64,000 nucleotides of DNA from Dictyostelium discoideum. Its lineage: Eukaryota. The translations under genes were made by a program, and so were the position numbers. The stretch lies in contig CM000153.2 of the NCBI GenBank assembly GCA_000004695.1, forward strand, positions 1,728,001 through 1,792,000, read 5' to 3'. Positions 14,612 to 26,028 of the stretch are shown here, one piece after another (within the stretch, counting starts at the first letter, position 1; every line of letters begins with the position of its first letter). A model generated the notes under the pieces. It was not told the origin of the DNA and did no database searches. It saw only the letters and a list, made by a program, of their open reading frames with translations.

Positions 14612-15929
14612 CAATGAATATGTAATTACATAATGTTGATGATGATAATGATGATAATGATGATAATGATGATAATGATGATAATGATGATAATGATGAT
14701 AATGATGATAACGATGATGAATTTTGAAAGGAAATGAACTTGGAAATAGATTTTAATATTATTTTTTTATTTTTTTATTTATTTATTTTTTAATTTTTTT
14801 TTTATTATTATTTTGTGTTAGGACTAGCCAAAATATAATGATAATTGTAACATCATTAACGACAATAGCAAAACAAAGATTTTCAATGATTTCAAGGATT
14901 GTACCAATACTGTGTTCATGTCCGAATTTAATACCAGTTTTTCCAATAGTACAACAAGAAAGCGTTAGACATTCATTAAAAGTTTCATTATTATCAATAA
15001 TTCGTATAAAGAGAAAAGAACTATTATCACCATTCATTTCAGATTTAATTCAAGCATGTTCAAAAATTGATTCAAAAGATGCTGCTGATGAAGCTGCAAG
15101 ATGGTTTTATCATGATGAACCTGATAAAAAAGTAAATATAAATATAATTAATTATTAATTAAACTAAAATATACCCCTCCCCTTATTCAAATAACTAATT
15201 TTCCCAAAAATAAATTTCAAAAAAAGAAACGACATAACGAAGGTGGTCATGAATCTCATAAAAAAAAATCAAAGGTTGAACATGTTTATGGTGTTAATGA
15301 TAATGTAATAGAAAATAATAAAAACATAAAAAATAATCATAATAACGATAGTAATAATAATAATAACAACAACAATAATTTTAGTAACAATTTTAATAAT
15401 TTAAATAATAATTTTAATACCGGTTTTAATAATAATAATAATAATAACAATAATAATTTTAATAACAATAATTTTAATGAAATTAATAAGAATAATAATA
15501 ATATGTACAGTTCAAACTTTATTGAGAAACCAGGTTTAATTATTGATGATGAAACTCAAGCAAAGATTTTGTAAGTTTGCAATAAATGTATATAAAAAAA
15601 AAAAAAAAGGTAATTGGATGCATAAGTGTATTAATTTATATTTATATATATACATATTTATTTAAATAATTTAGAGCATCTATTGAACATCTTAGTCCAG
15701 AATTTGTAAGAGAACTTGTTATTGAAAATATGAGTCATGTTCCTTTGATTAGTTTATTACAAGGAATACCGTTTAATCAACAAACTAAAGAGTTATTTAA
15801 ATTTGTAGATTCTTATCAAAATAAACAGATTAAACCAATTCATTTCATAAGTCCATTAACACAACCAAATCCATTACAATCTATAAACAATACAAATTTA
15901 CCTCAATATCCTTCACCACCTTTAAAACC

Positions 15930-15984
<55 letters not shown>

Positions 15985-17783
15985 CCTCAACAAAATTCAC
16001 CACAAAATCAACCAACACCTTTCATATTATCACCACCAGTAAACAAATCTTTTAAACCACCACCATCATCCCAACAACCATCACCACCAATACTTCAACA
16101 ACAATCACCACCACAACAACCACCACAACAACTACCACCACAAATACCTCTACAACCACCACAACAATCAACACCACCAATTGTAGAAACTCAAATTAAA
16201 GTTAAAAAGGAAGAAGATAGCGATGACGAAGATGAAGAAAAACAACTACAAGAAGAAGAAGATGAAGATTTATTCTCAAAAGAAGCAATGGAAGAAGAAG
16301 AAGAAGATGATGAAGTTGATAAAATAATTAAAAAAGAAAATGAACAACAACAATTAAAAGAGAAAATGGAAAATTCAAATTCTATTAGTTCTTCATTATT
16401 TGGTGGTGGTGGTGGTGATAATAGTAACGGTAAGAGTGATGTTATACCATCATTTACACCAAGACCAACATTTAAAGCACCACCACTTTCAAAAGAGAAA
16501 CAAAAACATGTTGGGGAGAGTGCATTGGTTAGAATTAAAATATCAGAACCTGGTGTCATGGTTTGCGGTAAACATGATCTTTGGACTTCATTATTATCTC
16601 GTATACTTTCAATTAGACCCGATCAAGAAGAATTACAAGATCAATTTATAAAATTTATCACTCAAGATTTTAAAAATCATAGAGAATTAGCGCTTCAATG
16701 GTTATTCAATGAATTATATATTGCAAAACAAATTACACCAACAACAACTAAAAATCTTAATCCTGAATTAGAAAATAATAATAATAATAATAATAATGAA
16801 AATAATGAAAATAATGATAATTCAACCACTGAAGCATCAACAACAACAAATAAAAATAAAAAAGAACCAAATATGAAAAGATATTCAACTTTATTAAAAA
16901 AAATGATAAAACAAATGAGAAGTCATTTCCCAATTAAAGATACAACTATCGGATCATTTATATTAGATTTACCATTTATAACCAATCAATTATTACATTC
17001 TATAAATTGTAAGATTGTTGCTGAATCTCAAAGTTTAATTTATACAAGTGCAACTTGGGATATTAATAAAGTATTTTCAAATGAACATAATCAAATACCA
17101 ATTGCAAATGTTACAGCAAGTATAAAAGATCATCAAATTGATGAAAATGGTAATCAAATACCATTGACAGATGATGATATGGACGCAGCAGCAGCATCAT
17201 CATCACCATTACCTATTGATCCAAAGATATTACAAGATAAAGAGAATGAATGGTTACCAATTGGGTTGGGTATATTGAGAGATTTAATCATTTGGAGACC
17301 AAATGTACGTGAATATTGTATAAATAGTCTTTTAAAATTTTCAATTTCAAATGATGATTCAGTTCGTTCACCAACAATTAATTTAATTGCAAATCAAATC
17401 TATTCAAAACAATCTGCTACAGAACCAATTCAATTATTTGCAAAGGAACAAATCATTCATTTAATTGCAATCAAAGATATCGAAGATGAAATGGAAATTC
17501 AAAAATCAAAAGATGCTGCCATCATCTATAGTGAATTAATGAATCAAGATAATAATATCGATGATAATGCTATTAAAATTGAAGAAACTCAATCAATTGA
17601 AGATAAAAAAAAACATGAAGAATTTGAAAAAAATAAACAAAATCAAAAAGAAGAACAAGAACAACCAATGAAACTTGATAATCTAAATGATGATTCAAAT
17701 GTAGATATTAATACCAACACCACCAACACCACCACCACTACCCCCACAACAAATACAACCACAACAACATCAACATCGACATC

Positions 17784-17814
<31 letters not shown>

Positions 17815-18822
17815 GAATTAGAACAATCAATAGTACCAAAAGTTTTAACTAAAACTAGAGTAAAAGAAATTAAAAAGTTTATAGAAACAAGAGTTTCACT
17901 TTATTTTGCATTGATTATTAAAAATCATCAATTATTAACTGACCTTTTACAATTATATCCAAAATATGATGAAAATATTCAAGAGGTTGTTAAAAGACTA
18001 ACGACATGTGTAATTAAACATATTGGACAAAGTAGTGCTTCATTGTTACAAGTGATTTCAATTTGTCCAACTGGATCAGAGGAATTAACACTTGAAATTT
18101 TGAATGCATTGGTTTTAAATGAAAAACCATCCAGTGAATTGGTTGAATCTGTAAAAACCTTACTATTGACCAATGGCGATATTAGATTCCTTTTACCAGT
18201 GCTAACGGGTTTGAAGAAAGAAGAAGTTATCTCTAGACTACCATCATTCCTATCAATGCCAAATAAAACCGATACCAATCAATTCATTAGTGTTTTAGCA
18301 TCACCAGGCTCACCATTATCCGCTTCGGAATTATTAGTTCAAATTCATTTGACACCTGATTCCTTAACTATGAAATCAATGGAAGCTATCGATTTTTGTT
18401 TAGATATGGAAGATATTTTCAAACAAGAGATTGTCGCTGCCACCATAAATCAATTGATGGCTCAGGCTCAGCTACCAAAGTTATTCATGAGAACTATCTT
18501 AAAGACCCTTCAAAAATATCCACGTCTAAAGATTTTCATCGTTGAGATTTTAGGTCGTTTAGTTGCTAGACAAGTTTGGAAGGATAAAACTTTATGGGAT
18601 GGTTTCATTCGTTGTACAAAATTGGCAAAACCAGAATCACTAGAGGTTATACTTCAATTACCACCAACTCAATTCGAAGATGCAATCAATCATGAAAAAC
18701 ATCGTGATCTCAAATCAATCATTATCAAACATTTACAATCAAGTAAAGAAAATGAAATTAGATATCCAAAACAAAATTTAAAAACTTTGAATTGGGAAAA
18801 ACATTCAACCACTTCAAAATAA
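13477..18822 (+). CDS. Symplekin (scaffold of the mRNA 3'-end cleavage/polyadenylation machinery), 7 exons; join(13477..13711,13848..13962,14070..14253,14353..14498,14822..15131,15227..15570,15675..18822)
   Basis: N-terminal exons align with the human symplekin HEAT region: IFHKEPILLDEFYNSFVEFALDRSQAIKKQIIPYIESICKKY vs [66 protein letters not shown] vs [35 protein letters not shown] vs HDISLDRIPRDH; IIVTSLTTIAKQR vs SINLTTALGSLANIARQR; LSPEFVRELVIENMSHVPLISLL vs [21 protein letters not shown]. The 1030-aa last exon ends with the Symplekin_C signature: RQVWKDKTLWDGFIRCTKLAKPESLEVILQLPPTQF vs [36 protein letters not shown]. Donors gtaaat/gtaagt/gtatgt and acceptors were located explicitly, and phases 1,2,0,2,0,2 close consistently. 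Confidence 0.85.
14565..14712 (+). repeat. Intronic microsatellites in symplekin intron 4: (CAAT)n at about 14565..14615, then about eight copies of GATGATAAT at about 14636..14712
   Basis: Directly visible: caatcaatcaatcaatcaatcaataaatcaatcaatcaatcaatgaat ... gatgataatgatgataatgatgataat... Confidence 0.9.
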
Positions 18823-20372: not shown

Positions 20373-20910
20373 AAAAAAAATAAAAAAAAAAAAAAAAAAA
20401 AAAAAGAGATAAATAAAAAGAGAATTTAATAAAATTTAAATTAAATTAATAAATTAAAAAATTAAAAAAAGAAAAAAAATATAAAATAAAATTGTTTACT
20501 TACTTTGGACAACTTCTGGCCCAATGTCCCTCTTCATTACACATGAAACATTTGCCACTGCTGCTATCTGGTCTTTTAATACCTTTACTACTATTACTTA
20601 ATTCGACAATAATATTTCTACCAAGGAAATTTTGTTTATGTTCACTATTAATTGCATCATCTGCTGAAGCTTTATCAAAGTATTCCTATTTTTTTTTTTT
20701 TTTTTTTTTTTTTTCAATAAAAAAATATATATTTTAGTTTGTATAATTTTTTTTTTAAAAAAAAAAAAAAAAAAAAAATTGTATACTTACAATAAAACAA
20801 AAACCTTTTCTAAGTTCTAGTCTATCTATTTTTCCAAACTTTGAGAATCTACCATATAAATCATCTTCTCTTGCGTCATGATTCAATCTTCCGATATATA
20901 TTTTTGACAT
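19466..20910 (-). CDS. SR-family splicing factor with N-terminal RRM, CCHC zinc knuckle and a long RS/RD plus Asn/Gly-rich C-terminal domain (SRSF7/9G8-like); complement(join(19466..20251,20503..20685,20791..20910))
   Basis: Minus-strand exon 1 reads MSKIYIGRLNHDAREDDLYGRFSKFGKIDRLELRKGFCFI (RNP2 IYIGRL, RNP1 KGFCFIEY split by a phase-0 gtaagt intron). Exon 2 reads EYFDKASADDAINSEHKQNFLGRNIIVELSNSSKGIKRPDSSSGKCFMCNEEGHWARSCPK (C-x2-C-x4-H-x4-C), followed by gtaagt. Exon 3 starts after the aag acceptor at 20252/20253 (KNSRYNPYHRERSRSRSRDRSRDRDRRRDDRRRSDKRRERDRSRSRSRSRDNRRRDDRDRSRDRSRDRDRSRDR...), runs through a (GN)n/(N)n tract and ends NGL* at 19466. The RS frame has no Met, so the track only shows the wrong-frame GTG ORFs 19651..20262 (-) and 19485..20228 (+). 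Confidence 0.72.
19950..20100 (-). repeat. Imperfect tandem 30-bp repeat (tcttgatctatctctatctcttgatctatc...) encoding SRDRDRSRDR units of the RS domain
   Basis: The periodicity is visible on the plus strand between 19950 and 20100. Confidence 0.8.
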
Positions 20911-21569: not shown

Positions 21570-23523
21570 ATGTCAAATCATGATAATAATAATAATACCA
21601 CCTCAGTGAATAACAATGGTAATAGTATAAAAACAATTAAAGAGAATATTCAAGCATGTATGGAGATATATTATCATTTAAAGAGTACATTGGGACCTTT
21701 TGGTAGAGATAAATTAATAGTTGACAAGAATAATAATTATCTATCAACCAATGACGGAGCAACAATATTACAATATTTAAAAATTACACACCCAGCACCA
21801 AGATTATTAATTGGTATTGCAAAATCACAAGATGAAACAGTTGGTGATGGTACCACAAGTGTAGTTTTATTAACATGTATTTTATTACAAAATGCTTTAA
21901 AATTTATATTATTATCAATTCATCCAATTATATTTATCAAGGTACATACCTATATCTATATTTAATATCAATTTTTATTTTTTATTTTATTGTATTAATT
22001 ATAATTTAATTTTTTTTTTAATTTTTTTCTTAATTTTTTAGGGTTATCAAATTTCATTAGATTTTTGTTTAAATGTAATTAATGAAATTAAAATATCACC
22101 AATAAAAGATAATAAAAATAATGAAGAGATTTTAAAAAAAGAGGAAATATTTGAAAATGAAGAATTTTTAAAACATTTATATTCAGTTGCATCTACATCA
22201 ATATCATCTAAAATTTTAGCAAGATATAGTGATCATTTTTCAAAGATTGGCGTTGAAGCAGTTAAAAGATTAAAATTCAATGAAACACAAGATTTAATTA
22301 GAGTTATTGGTATCACTGGAAATTCAATGTTAGAATCACAATTAATAGATGGAATATTATTAGAAATTGATAGAAATCAATTAACCACTTTTAAAATTGA
22401 TCAACAACAACAACAAAGCAACAACAACAACAACAACAATAAAGAAAATGAAAAAATTAAATCAATTTTAAAGAATCCATCAATTATTATTGGTAAATTA
22501 CAATTGAATAAAACTTCTTCAAATCAATTCCAAGGTTTAAATTTATCAATTCCACATTATCATGATAATAATAATAAAAATAATAATAATAATTATAATG
22601 ATCAAAATAAAGAACAAAGAGATAAAATTGAACTATTAATAAAAAAAGGAATAAACATTGTAATAAGTGATACGGAAATATCACCATGGATTGAATTAAT
22701 TTTTAAAGAAAATAATATATTATACTTTAATATTCCAGATAGTAGAGAATTGGAAATTATATCACATTGTATTAATTGTTCATTAATTTATGATCTTTCG
22801 TCATTGTCATTATTAGAAGATGAAAAAGAAAAACAATCATCAATGATATCAAAACCAAATTCAATTGAAATTTTACCAATTGGCGATAAATTCTTTTTAA
22901 AAATTTCATTAAATGGTGATGATGATGATGATGATGATGATAATAATAATAATAATAATAAACAATTATTATCATCAAATGGAGCTACAATGTTATTAAG
23001 ATCACCAACTGATACAATGTTACAAGAATGTATTAGATCATTTAAAGATATGTTAAACATTTTATCAGCAACAGTTAGAAATCCATATTTAATTGGTGGT
23101 GGTGGTTGTACCTATATTGAATTATCAAAAAGATTAAGAAATAAAGCAAATGAGTTTATAACTGATGAAAAATTATTAATTTCAATTAATTGTTTTGCTG
23201 ATTCCTTGGAAATGATACCAATGATTTTAATTCAAAATGCAGGATATGATAGTTTAGATTTATTAGGTAAATTGAAATTAGTTCATAAATCAACATCAAC
23301 CACAAATACAACTACAAATCCTTTAAATAATATTTGGAAAGGTGTAAATTTAAATGATGGTACTATAGTGGATATGATATCAGATTTAAATGTAAAAGAA
23401 CCATCTTTCCTTCTTTCAAATATTTTAACTTTATCAAGTAGAGCTGCTCAAATGATTTTAAGAATAAATAATAATATTTTCATTGAACCAAGATCACAAT
23501 TTAAAATTCCAAATCAATTATAA
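21570..23523 (+). CDS. Divergent TCP-1/cpn60 (group II chaperonin, CCT-like) family paralog with Asn/Gln/Asp-rich insertions; join(21570..21941,22042..23523)
   Basis: The track start at 21564 is TTG, and the first ATG is 21570 (atgtcaaatcatgat). Exon 1 ends ...HPIIFIK with gtacat at 21942. The acceptor ttttag is at 22040/22041 and exon 2 is in the frame of track ORF 22327. Chaperonin signatures are present: LGPFGRDKLIVDKNNNYLSTNDGATILQYLKITHPAPRLLIGIAKSQDETVGDGTTSVVLL (equatorial ATP-binding GDGTT motif), IGGGGCTYIELSKRLR (the VPGGGA.E motif) and a C-terminal ...RAAQMILRINNNIFIEP. The apical region is highly diverged with poly-N, poly-Q and poly-D runs, so it is unlikely to be one of the eight canonical CCT subunits. 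Confidence 0.65.
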
Positions 23524-23733: not shown

Positions 23734-26028
23734 TTATGAAGAAGCATTAATTGATTCTTTTGGTTGATTATTAATATTTTTTGGTTCTTCAGTTTTATTA
23801 TTAAAAGGACGTGGACCTAAGACAGCTTCAACTTCTTCAAAGTGAATAACTTCTTTTTCAAGTAATAAATTAGCTACAGAAATTAAACCTTCTCTATGTT
23901 CTTGTAAGACTTGAGTGGTACGATCATAAGCGGATTTAAGTAATTTTCTAACCTCTTCATCCATGACTTCAGCAGTTTCTTCACTGTAAGGTTTGGTTAA
24001 ATCAGAACCATCTTGACCTTTTTGATAGGATAATGGACCTATTTTTTCATTCATACCATAGATTGAGACTTGAGAGTAAGCCATTTTAGTGATTTTCTCA
24101 AGATCATCTTGAGCACCAGTTGTAATGGTACCAAAGGTTAATTGTTCAGCTACACGACCACCTAAAGCCATACACATCATATCAAAGATTTGTTCTTGAT
24201 TTTGAAGGAATTGCTCCTTTGGAAGATATTGAGCATAACCTAGAGCGGCAACACCTCTTGGTACAATTGAAACTTTCAATAGTGGATGACAATGTTTGAG
24301 GAACCAACTTACGACGGCATGACCAGCTTCATGATATGCAACTGTTCTCTTTTCAGTTGGAGATAAAACTTTATTCTTTTTCTCTAAACCACCAATAACA
24401 CGATCGACGGCAGCATCGAAGTGTTCCAAAGTGATGATTTCAGCATGTCTACGAGCGGCAATGAGGGCGGCTTCATTACAAACGTTGGCAATATCGGCAC
24501 CACTGAAACCTGGAGTTAATTTTGATAATCTTTCAGCGTAGTTTATTGATTTATCCAAAAGTAATGCGGCTAAATGTACTCTAAAGATCTCTTCTCTACT
24601 CTTTAGATCTGGATTATCGATTGTGATTTGTCTGTCGAATCTGCCAGGTCTAAGTAATGCCTTGTCCAAGATATCAGGTCTATTGGTTGCAGCGAGTACA
24701 ACAACATTCTTCAATGGTTTAAAACCATCCATTTCAACCAACAATTGATTTAATGTATTCTCACGTTCATCATTCGAACCAGAGAAACCACCTTTACCTC
24801 TTGCTCTACCAACTGCATCAATTTCATCGATGAATACAATACATGGTGCATTCTTTCTAGCCTGTTCAAATAGATCTCTAACACGTGATGGACCAACACC
24901 AACAAACATCTCTACGAAATCTGAACCACTTGTAGAATAGAATGGTACATTTGCTTCACCAGCGGTTGCTTTAGCAATCAAAGTTTTACCAGTACCTGGT
25001 GGACCAACTAAAATAGCACCTCTTGGTATCTTTGCACCAATGTCATGGAATTTCTTTGGATTCTTTAAAAAGTTTACAAATTCTTCAATCTCAACTTTAG
25101 CTTCACCAAGACCTGCTACATCGCTAAATTTAACAGTTGATGTTGATTTTTCAAATTTATTTGCTGTACTTTTACCTTGTGAAAACATTTTATTTGATTT
25201 AATTGATCTAAATGTTCTAAAAATTAAATAACCAATAATTGCATATGGTATAACTTGAATCAATGCTACTCTTGGGTCGAAATATTCATGATATGAAATT
25301 GGTATAAATTGTGATTTTGGAATACCTAAATCAGATTGAACTTTTTCAACTTGTTCTTCAAATACTTTCTTATCACCAATTTTGAAAGAATTGGTTATGC
25401 TATAAGTTACACCATCATCATTTAATTTATAAGTATTTGCATAACCATCAGTGACAACGATTTTAGATGGTTTATTCTCACTTAATTCATCTAAAAATTC
25501 ACTAAATTTAATTTCGTTTCCTTCTTCTGTATTTGGTCTAAAAAGTGATAATATAACACCAATTGATATAACTGTAATTAAATATTTCTTAAATTCTGGT
25601 GAATTCATTTGTTGCATAAAACTTTCATCTTTATTATCTTTATTATCTTTATTATCTTTATTATCTTTATTATCTTTATTATCTTTATTATTATTGTTGC
25701 CTTTGTTGTTGTTGTTGTCGTTACCAGTTTCTTTTTCTTTTTTTTCGAAATTACCCCATCCTTCTGATTTAAAAATTGAATCTTTTATTGACTTTATACT
25801 GAATGAAGGTGATGTTATATATTCATTATTAAAAAATCTATTTAAAATACTTGTTTGATTTTCATTTTCATTTTGATTTTTAAATAGATTATTATTACTT
25901 GAAAAGTTACATTTAATATTATTACTATATTGTTGTTTTGAAAATAATGAAGTTTGTGTTATTGTAATTGGTTTTTTTATTTTTTCATATGATTTTATAA
26001 GGTTTCTATTACGAATAATAGATGCCAT
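23734..26028 (-). CDS. Mitochondrial m-AAA protease subunit (AFG3L2/SPG7/Yta10-12-like FtsH-family ATP-dependent zinc metalloprotease), single exon
   Basis: 764-aa ORF. It has an N-terminal presequence-like segment ([19 protein letters not shown]), TM helices, Walker A ([18 protein letters not shown]), Walker B ([12 protein letters not shown]), second region of homology, HEAGHA zinc-binding motif, and a C-terminal block that is near-identical to AFG3L2 ([88 protein letters not shown]). Confidence 0.92.
25621..25690 (-). repeat. About eight tandem copies of a 9-bp unit (ctttattat, coding KDNKDNKDN) inside the AFG3-like N-terminal region
   Basis: Directly visible as ctttattatctttattatctttattat... 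It is an in-frame coding microsatellite. Confidence 0.85.

Follow-up and report, generated by a model that had tools for sequence, protein, structure and literature searches.

Gene model, fold and ATP site

The 64,000-nt stretch of the Dictyostelium discoideum genome analyzed here (assembly GCA_000004695.1, contig CM000153.2, positions 1,728,001 to 1,792,000 of the forward strand), referred to as the window, carries a two-exon gene on the + strand, which runs from an ATG at position 21570 to a TAA ending at 23523 according to the open reading frame (ORF) and splice model. The spliced 617-aa product is identical to DDB_G0284247 of D. discoideum AX4 (100% identity over 100% of the length), annotated only as a "hypothetical protein". 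It is a genuine, conserved, non-canonical CCT-like chaperonin, probably ATP-active, from a small group of paralogs that we call clade X. An earlier note, made from the letters of the window, had reported a ninth, highly divergent CCT paralog as the single interval 21570-23523; the gene is real, and it contains an intron that was not mentioned there (Table 1), located at the identical position in the D. citrinum and D. firmibasis orthologs.

The protein shows one continuous match to the Pfam family PF00118 (Cpn60_TCP1), between residues 37 and 601 and profile positions 5-484 of 490, with a score of 309 bits against a cut-off of 34.3. This full-length match over the curated threshold assigns it to the group II chaperonins. 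The AlphaFold2 model obtained from a 54-sequence alignment (predicted local distance difference test, pLDDT, 82.5; predicted template modeling score, pTM, 0.82) shows low confidence only in the inserts and at the termini, and was used instead of an earlier, mediocre model based on an 8-sequence alignment (pLDDT 68). The predicted chain has the equatorial, intermediate and apical domains of the family, including the long apical helix (residues 303-325). The integrity of the lid tip is uncertain, as the segment 284-301 ahead of this helix is modeled as a disordered poly-N insert. In the Foldseek search the best match is human CCT2 in the closed state (7nvn_b; E = 1e-32, template modeling (TM) score 0.86, root-mean-square deviation 3.9 Å), followed by chains of eta, alpha, gamma and the thermosome at no more than about three orders of magnitude; the TM scores to CCT and thermosome chains are 0.84-0.88. 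A sequence search of the PDB gave near-equal scores for eta (180), beta (178), an archaeal chaperonin (162) and alpha (157).

All the nucleotide motifs (LGPxG, NDG, GDGTT, GGG, the catalytic Asp and the sensing-loop Lys) are present in the protein and conserved in clade X. We take Lys181 to be the equivalent of K161, and Asp460 that of D386, in Mm-cpn. As judged from the alignments, clade X retains every residue known to be necessary for ATP binding and hydrolysis; the definitions and roles of the group II ATP-site motifs, including phosphate binding by GDGTTS, follow PMC3268035. The equatorial ATP motifs had been called intact before, which is correct for GDGTTS, and for NDGAT, the Lys, the Asp and the GGG loop as well, while the string then quoted, GGGG-x-E-x-x-LS, is absent from the sequence. 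The second motif reads GGGGCTYIELS, with Tyr482 in place of the first Glu of GGGAxExELS, and this Tyr change is a signature of the family.

The poly-N, poly-Q, poly-D and T-rich inserts named in the earlier note are all found, with the T-rich one located in the C-terminal equatorial segment and not in the apical or intermediate domain. The four low-complexity runs are the sole internal segments with pLDDT below 50 in the 54-sequence model, the T-rich run reaching only 57. In the other dictyostelid orthologs the inserts are missing or far shorter (the Tieghemostelium protein has 525 aa), and the D. discoideum inserts are, in the model, lineage-specific disordered loops on an otherwise confidently predicted chaperonin fold. 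The proposed lack of similarity to CCT1-8 holds for the apical domain, where the identity to canonical subunits is 14-17%, compared to ~25% among the canonical paralogs themselves, whereas the equatorial domain, with 34-42%, is at a level ordinary for CCT paralogs.

Table 1. Features of the DDB_G0284247 gene and protein, with positions in the window.
Feature	Position	Strand	Remarks
Exon 1	21570..21941	+	Residues 1-124: poly-N N-terminus and first equatorial segment with LGPFG, NDGAT, GDGTTS; splice model
Poly-N run, residues 5-11	N-terminus (exon 1)	+	Sequence
NDGAT nucleotide-binding loop, residues 61-65	21750..21764	+	Invariant in clade X; 463/472 other group II sequences
GDGTTS phosphate-binding motif, residues 92-97	21843..21860	+	Sequence; role per PMC3268035
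Intron, 100 nt, GT..AG, AT-rich	21942..22041	+	Splice model
Exon 2	22042..23523	+	Residues 125-617 and TAA stop: intermediate, apical and second equatorial segments
Lys181 in SISSKIL, putative sensing-loop Lys equivalent	22210..22212	+	20/20 clade X, 461/472 others
Poly-Q/poly-N insert, residues 242-259, apical domain	22393..22446	+	Absent in other dictyostelid orthologs; pLDDT <50 at 243-253
Poly-N insert, residues 296-311, lid/protrusion region just ahead of long apical helix	22555..22602	+	pLDDT <50 at 284-301
Poly-D/poly-N insert, residues 417-430, end of apical domain	22918..22959	+	pLDDT <50 at 419-432
LRSPT, residues 443-447, clade X signature in place of canonical (L/I)RG(G/A)x	22996..23010	+	Clade X alignment census
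Asp460 (SFKDML), putative catalytic Asp equivalent	23047..23049	+	Asp in 20/20 clade X; aligned with conserved HDA motif in PDB alignments
GGGGCTYIELS, residues 476-486	23095..23127	+	GGG loop (477-479) intact; Tyr482 replaces canonical Glu
T-rich insert, residues 542-551, C-terminal equatorial segment	23293..23322	+	Mean pLDDT 57 for block 541-550

Relation to the canonical subunits and membership of clade X

The NCBIfam equivalog models for CCT1-8 (TIGR02340-02347) have cut-offs of 456-800 bits. DDB_G0284247 scores best with the eta model, at 274.5 bits against a cut-off of 669.2, and remains below half of the cut-off for all eight. The insert-poor dictyostelid orthologs give 308-325 bits with the eta model, which is barely more than with the generic thermosome models, while true eta proteins score 871-889. 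With the beta model the dictyostelid members reach 209-290 bits (cut-off 522), and gamma, theta and zeta are the lowest-scoring subunit models, theta giving 180-213 bits. In total, 14 members of clade X were scanned; their subunit-model scores lie between 140 and 325 bits, and none reaches any subunit cut-off. The scores with the thermosome equivalog models are below the cut-offs as well (237 bits against 450 and 229 against 400).

Neighbor-joining (NJ) trees, calculated with 100 bootstraps per run, included the alpha, beta, delta, epsilon and eta subunits and archaeal sequences, and were built without gamma, theta, zeta and BBS-type sequences. Clade X falls outside all five subunit clades and the archaeal clade. 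The clades that exclude it are supported at 98-100% for beta, 100% for eta together with its eta-like relatives and 77-99% for the archaea (this last range depending on the distance correction). The protein also carries few of the residues that are diagnostic for the canonical orthogroups: 2/20 for beta, 0/11 for eta, 0/2 for alpha, 0/10 for delta and 1/14 for epsilon. Clear orthology is not obtained because the model scores stay under the cut-offs, the bootstrapped clades exclude X and the signature residues are missing, and on sequence grounds DDB_G0284247 is outside the alpha, beta, delta, epsilon and eta orthogroups. Eta orthology, to which the top matches had pointed, was ruled out by the cut-offs, the NJ tree, the signature residues (0/11) and the apical-only search described below.

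The proposal of an extra, highly divergent group II paralog without a canonical ortholog is borne out by the model scores, the trees and the signature residues, even when insert-poor orthologs are used. The earlier note had named clear orthology to one CCT subunit, once the inserts were masked, as the result that would speak against it; the insert-poor orthologs stay at or below 325 bits against 669. The phylogeny that it recommended, run here as NJ with five CCT clades and the archaea, keeps X separate from each.

Among the canonical subunits, beta (CCT2) is weakly indicated by the sequences as the nearest. X groups with beta in 25-63% of the NJ bootstraps, as compared to 7-17% for X with eta, and in the hhalign comparison beta and the non-dictyostelid part of X are reciprocal best eukaryotic partners. 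The profile of the dictyostelid apical domain matched the CCT2 apical domain (2e-7) and the thermosome apical domain (5e-7), with alpha at 0.1 and no match to eta. CCT2 and DDB_G0284247 have in common the three-domain group II fold (best Foldseek hit 7nvn_b), the ATP-site motifs and strings like GGGC and LIQN(A/C)G. CCT2 is also the top eukaryotic partner by NJ and by hhalign, and no other CCT apical domain is matched significantly by the apical profile. They differ in the N-terminal segment, in the absence of RG and of the GGGxxE Glu from DDB_G0284247, and in the signature residues, only 2 of the 20 beta residues being carried; this near absence means that any origin shared with beta is old. 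The likeness to CCT7/eta consists of the top subunit model, the top PDB sequence match and an equatorial identity of 38-42%. Against it stand the 274-325 bits (cut-off 669), the lack of all 11 eta residues, an apical profile without eta and the low X+eta bootstraps.

Archaeal thermosome subunits resemble DDB_G0284247 in overall fold, length, ATP motifs and a C-terminal helix of the MILRID type, and the generic thermosome models score about as well as the CCT models. They are distinguished by the equivalog cut-offs, which X does not reach, and by the archaeal clade, which X is outside of; DDB_G0284247 has neither their LKEGT strand at the N-terminus nor their charged or GGM tail. A special kinship with Asgard archaea was considered, since a 1057-aa Freyarchaeota protein (437 bits) was the top non-dictyostelid match and a Jordarchaeum protein led the second profile search. 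It was rejected: the high rank arises because HMMER sums two tandem chaperonin units, and the scores per unit (206+232 and 177+153 bits) are below those of ordinary eta. The tandem halves sit with the archaea in NJ. A marine archaeal origin was likewise rejected, as protein P0155, which has all three of the X motif changes, belongs to marine planktonic archaeal clusters and in the trees joins the archaea and never X (0%), and its motif likeness to X is treated as convergence.

The orthologs found by sequence search score 445-1331 bits and come from D. discoideum strains, D. citrinum, D. firmibasis, D. purpureum, Polysphondylium violaceum, Tieghemostelium lacteum, Heterostelium album, Acytostelium subglobosum and one EukProt data set; beyond these dictyostelid-type orthologs the scores fall to ~197 bits. 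Every dictyostelid genome that turned up has an X ortholog, with no disruption of the ORF in at least 10 genomes drawn from across Dictyostelia. A dictyostelid-type clade X ortholog from EukProt, P0010 ('gene7539-9270_t', 618 aa), has an unrelated Cys-rich, signal-peptide-like N-terminus and lacks ~27 residues after GDGTTSV; this gene model is probably mis-fused or mis-spliced. The dictyostelid orthologs were also turned into a profile, which was searched against 1.84 billion representative proteins with subsequent per-domain rescoring. After rescoring, the non-dictyostelid matches that stand above the canonical background are P0122 (512 aa, 369 bits), Ceratiomyxa fruticulosa (344) and Acrasis kona (324), with the best eta at most 323. 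Further members were recognized in the trees and in a second profile search (P0126, P0129, P0130, P0283, P0284, P0022 and P0025); this second search is no census, as known members (dictyostelids, Acrasis) are not among its listed matches, and the list of taxa is accordingly incomplete.

Clade X is recovered with 88-89% NJ bootstrap support, and in hhalign the dictyostelid members score 861 with the other members and at most 655 with any other clade. Three sequence positions set the clade apart in a census of 20 of its members and 472 other group II sequences. The Gly of the RG(G/A) motif is replaced by Ser, Ala or Thr in 20/20 and followed by Pro in 18/20 (Gly in 445/472 others); the Glu of GGGAxE is replaced by Tyr, Phe, Gln or His in 20/20 (Glu in 438/472 others); and position 4 of LGPxG is Tyr, Phe or Cys, although this position also varies among the canonical subunits (Val in alpha). 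DDB_G0284247, with LRSPT, GGGCTY, LGPFG and mutual best profile similarity, belongs to the clade. Two structural interpretations of these positions were abandoned. A recount on the GroEL sequence gave no equivalence between the RG Gly and the Gly375 hinge of GroEL, and a salt bridge between LGPxG position 4 and the lost Glu is not strictly coupled, many archaeal sequences pairing Lys with Tyr or Gln.

The ends of the protein are altered as well. Dictyostelid and most other members have a shorter N-terminus without the '(I/V)LLKEGT' strand known from eta and thermosome subunits; a vestige of the strand is retained in P0122 and P0284. The C-terminal tail of the non-dictyostelid members reads '...(E/D)LG-hydrophobic-hydrophobic', and that of the dictyostelid members 'IEPRxQFKxP'.

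The Acrasis kona gene is on a contig of 86 kb and has ordinary nuclear genes around it. The contigs of the environmental members resemble compact eukaryotic genomes and showed no synteny with Acrasis. The clade spans two supergroups, since Acrasis belongs to the Heterolobosea (Discoba) and both Ceratiomyxa and the dictyostelids to the Amoebozoa; the idea of a paralog restricted to dictyostelids is not tenable in view of the relatives in Ceratiomyxa, Acrasis and environmental eukaryotes. From its sequences, clade X is a separate, so far undescribed, small clade of paralogs. In the literature searched, no paper names DDB_G0284247 or describes the clade, and nothing useful was found on Dictyostelium CCT gene lists or Acrasis chaperonins. 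The database names attached to its members ('TCP-1-eta', 'T-complex protein 1 subunit beta', 'thermosome subunit alpha') were assigned automatically, do not agree with one another and, as a practical point, are misleading.

Dictyostelia as a whole retain a second divergent chaperonin family, called family Y here (A. subglobosum P0195, H. album PPL_10492, D. purpureum and D. discoideum P0400). It forms its own NJ clade (100%; X+Y 25%), with alpha as the nearest canonical subunit. Like X, it lies outside all canonical orthogroups, matches only Cpn60_TCP1 in Pfam and has shortened, in fact very short, N- and C-termini. Unlike X, it retains the GGGxxE Glu and the LGPKG Lys. A published screen of D. 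discoideum for BBS6, BBS10 and BBS12 with BLAST and hidden Markov models gave a single BBS12-like sequence, DDB_G0268902, outside all CCT families; the same paper states that CCT orthologs are readily identified in this species and regards the BBS chaperonins as probable descendants of a CCT8-like protein (PMC10074162). P0400, which is located on a contig the size of chromosome 1, is probably DDB_G0268902. With this second family D. discoideum probably has ten group II chaperonin-type genes, and the count of nine in the earlier note, correct in recognizing an extra paralog, is probably one too low. The family Y sequences carry the labels P0400 (locus L011, 3001-5184), P0195, P0398, P0399 and P0402, and in D. 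discoideum P0400 is flanked by three DUF6748 genes.

Selection, possible function and alternative explanations

Compared with the D. citrinum and D. firmibasis orthologs, the ratio of nonsynonymous to synonymous substitution rates (dN/dS) is 0.18-0.25 overall. The equatorial and intermediate domains have values of 0.06-0.12, and the apical domain, the most relaxed of the three, has 0.27-0.53. About 170 columns are invariant in eight dictyostelid orthologs, including all the ATP-site residues, and the apical domain has a conserved, clade-specific core (GKLQL, VISDT, DSRELE, IGD.FFL). By these measures DDB_G0284247 is a functional gene under purifying selection, with a complete three-domain group II subunit as its predicted product.

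With a complete ATP apparatus, the protein is expected to go through an ATP cycle as CCT subunits do, the equatorial domain being the predicted site of binding and hydrolysis. The cycle would be coupled to an apical domain with a clade-specific and client-specific surface, as fast evolution around a clade-specific conserved core points to a specialized client surface, and the low-complexity runs would be tolerated as disordered loops on the chaperonin scaffold. The exchange of the Glu is compatible with a working chaperonin, since similar replacements recur in marine archaeal thermosome paralogs. The N-terminal strand makes ring contacts in thermosomes. The altered ring-contact elements (N-terminal strand and C-terminal tail), together with the coexisting canonical CCT set, make an accessory role likelier than a housekeeping position in the ring. 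By the logic of BBS6, BBS10 and BBS12, the protein may be a specialized accessory subunit or assembly factor, with or beside CCT, for a non-ciliary client, dictyostelids having no cilia. We therefore favor, with moderate confidence, a conserved, predicted ATP-active, non-canonical chaperonin of clade X that likely serves as a specialized accessory subunit or assembly factor with or beside CCT.

Several points weigh against this interpretation. The trees containing X are distance-based and have long branches, and the clade could partly reflect long-branch attraction; gamma, theta, zeta and BBS-type sequences were not among their taxa, and the position of X in respect to beta is unsettled (25-63%). 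Most of the non-dictyostelid members carry no organism assignment. Marine archaeal paralogs gained some of the same motif changes independently, so the signature is not unique and could be convergent within X. That the N-terminal strand is lost was deduced from alignments, and what this would mean for assembly from the general structure of thermosomes; the accessory role, like the function in general, is proposed from sequence and predicted structure. The presence of canonical cct2 and cct7 genes in D. discoideum is taken from a published statement (PMC10074162); the corresponding UniProt entries would be TCPB/TCPH_DICDI.

A more far-reaching version would make X an ancient ninth class of CCT-type subunit from the base of the eukaryotes or close to it, possibly the sister of CCT2, that was lost everywhere except in some amoeboid groups (Eumycetozoa, Heterolobosea and certain unsampled protists) and, with family Y, would stand as a separate ATP-driven chaperonin-like machine with a non-ciliary client in dictyostelids. 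It would imply a second cytosolic chaperonin system beside CCT, and it seems to us rather doubtful.

The protein could instead be a fast-evolving dictyostelid ortholog of CCT2/beta or CCT7/eta, or a recent lineage-specific copy of one of them, and would then fill the place of that subunit in the ring of an alternative CCT complex, comparable to CCT6B in the testis of mammals. Eta is indeed at the top of the NCBIfam and PDB sequence matches, some databases automatically name the orthologs 'TCP-1-eta', beta is the nearest by NJ, hhalign and the apical-domain search, and GGGC and LIQN(A/C)G resemble beta. The scores, however, are below half of every subunit cut-off and exceed those of the generic thermosome models by no more than is expected of a non-member, the beta and eta crown clades exclude X at 98-100%, the signature residues are nearly or fully absent (2/20 and 0/11), the relatives in Ceratiomyxa and Acrasis make the split older than Dictyostelia, and the CCT orthologs of D. 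discoideum were reported to be readily identified (PMC10074162). Such an origin is unlikely. A non-animal member of the BBS type (MKKS/BBS6, BBS10 or BBS12), kept for a non-ciliary role, would fit by analogy: the animal proteins are likewise divergent group II paralogs outside CCT1-8, with inserts, and are thought to be dedicated assembly factors acting with CCT subunits. In BBS6 the ATPase motifs are not all intact, in contrast to the fully intact ATP site of DDB_G0284247, whose host has neither cilia nor a BBSome. The other D. discoideum gene proposed to be BBS12-like (PMC10074162) implies that such proteins can persist without cilia, but the screen that found it, DDB_G0268902, gave only this gene and makes no mention of DDB_G0284247, and family Y, its probable home, is separate from X in NJ (Y 100%, X+Y 25%). 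The similarity to theta is also low, this being among the worst models (180-213 bits), which does not agree with the CCT8-like ancestry proposed for the BBS chaperonins (PMC10074162). Nothing in these comparisons, whose trees covered five CCT clades, family Y and the archaea, ties the protein to MKKS, BBS10 or BBS12, and we regard a BBS-type protein as very unlikely.

Horizontal transfer of an archaeal thermosome gene would explain the NCBI name of the Acrasis member ('thermosome subunit alpha'), the first rank of thermosome models in NCBIfam for several X members, the lead of the Asgard proteins in the profile search and the LGPYG, LRAPT and GGGAPY shared by P0155. The Asgard scores are, however, sums over two units, with 153-232 bits per unit, below ordinary eta, and each of the canonical CCT clades, too, has a thermosome profile as its best match. 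The archaea are monophyletic at 77-99%, X+archaea is at 0% with P0155 included, and the spliceosomal introns and the ordinary nuclear context also speak for a eukaryotic gene, which makes the transfer highly improbable. The very divergent apical domain (dN/dS up to 0.53), the many simple-sequence inserts and the lack of any paper on the gene in the literature searched might suggest a decaying, functionless duplicate, with divergence and repeats resulting from relaxed constraint. This explanation has next to nothing to recommend it in the face of an ORF intact in at least 10 dictyostelid genomes, ~170 invariant columns across Dictyostelia that include all the catalytic residues, inserts that fall in loops predicted to be disordered, and a selection analysis that contradicts it (dN/dS 0.18-0.25 overall, 0.06-0.12 in the ATPase core).

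CCT is generally presented as a machine with a fixed set of eight subunits, and the extra paralogs known to us are either recent duplicates, such as CCT6B, or the cilium-linked BBS6, BBS10 and BBS12. Clade X would add a conserved, selected, predicted ATPase-competent class of paralogs in organisms without cilia, with relatives in two supergroups, and suggests that the diversity of chaperonin paralogs is wider than the textbook set. As Dictyostelium is genetically tractable, the role of the clade is directly testable.

Other chaperonins and neighboring genes

The Asgard proteins P0121 (Candidatus Freyarchaeota, MDO8079144.1, 1057 aa), P0281 (Candidatus Jordarchaeum, 1059 aa) and P0124 (JGI, 1047 aa) each contain two complete thermosome units in tandem, on contigs of up to 119 kb. 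GDGTK occurs in both units of P0121, whose C-terminal unit carries Ser at the site of the catalytic Asp (ERVFRSVL; ERAVHDAV in its N-terminal counterpart). Two different chaperonin units linked covalently in this way could bear on the origin of the hetero-oligomeric CCT. The GGGAxE Glu is absent from the marine archaeal thermosome paralogs P0155, P0167, P0164, P0163, P0206 and P0237, several of which are labeled Poseidoniaceae or Thermoplasmatota; P0155 has LGPYG, LRAPT and GGGAPY.

Among the eukaryotic sequences, P0225 (Naegleria gruberi, XP_002676148), P0170 and P0240 make up a clade of divergent eta-like sequences that is the sister group of canonical eta (bootstrap support 100% for the two together). 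P0240, the only one of them scanned, scores 475 bits against the eta cut-off of 669. From its sequences, this clade is another lineage-specific CCT paralog. P0263 and P0397 from the malawimonad Gefionella okellyi (EukProt EP00698) represent a divergent group II chaperonin that fits no subunit model (thermosome 351 bits, alpha 322 bits) and whose position in the tree is unsettled.

The neighbors of DDB_G0284247 are ordinary Dictyostelium genes, and no tRNA genes were found in the window. Upstream there are a 1030-aa ORF with a symplekin C-terminal domain (15730-18822, + strand) and, directly before the chaperonin gene, the first exon of a small RRM protein (20755-20910, - strand), both of ordinary appearance. 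The downstream gene (23734-26028, - strand) encodes an FtsH-type protein of 764 aa with AAA and M41 metalloprotease domains and an N-terminal region of poly-N and KDN repeats. An FtsH-type gene also adjoins the chaperonin ortholog of D. firmibasis, and the gene at this position in D. citrinum agrees with it in size and strand (768 aa, no Pfam match on record).

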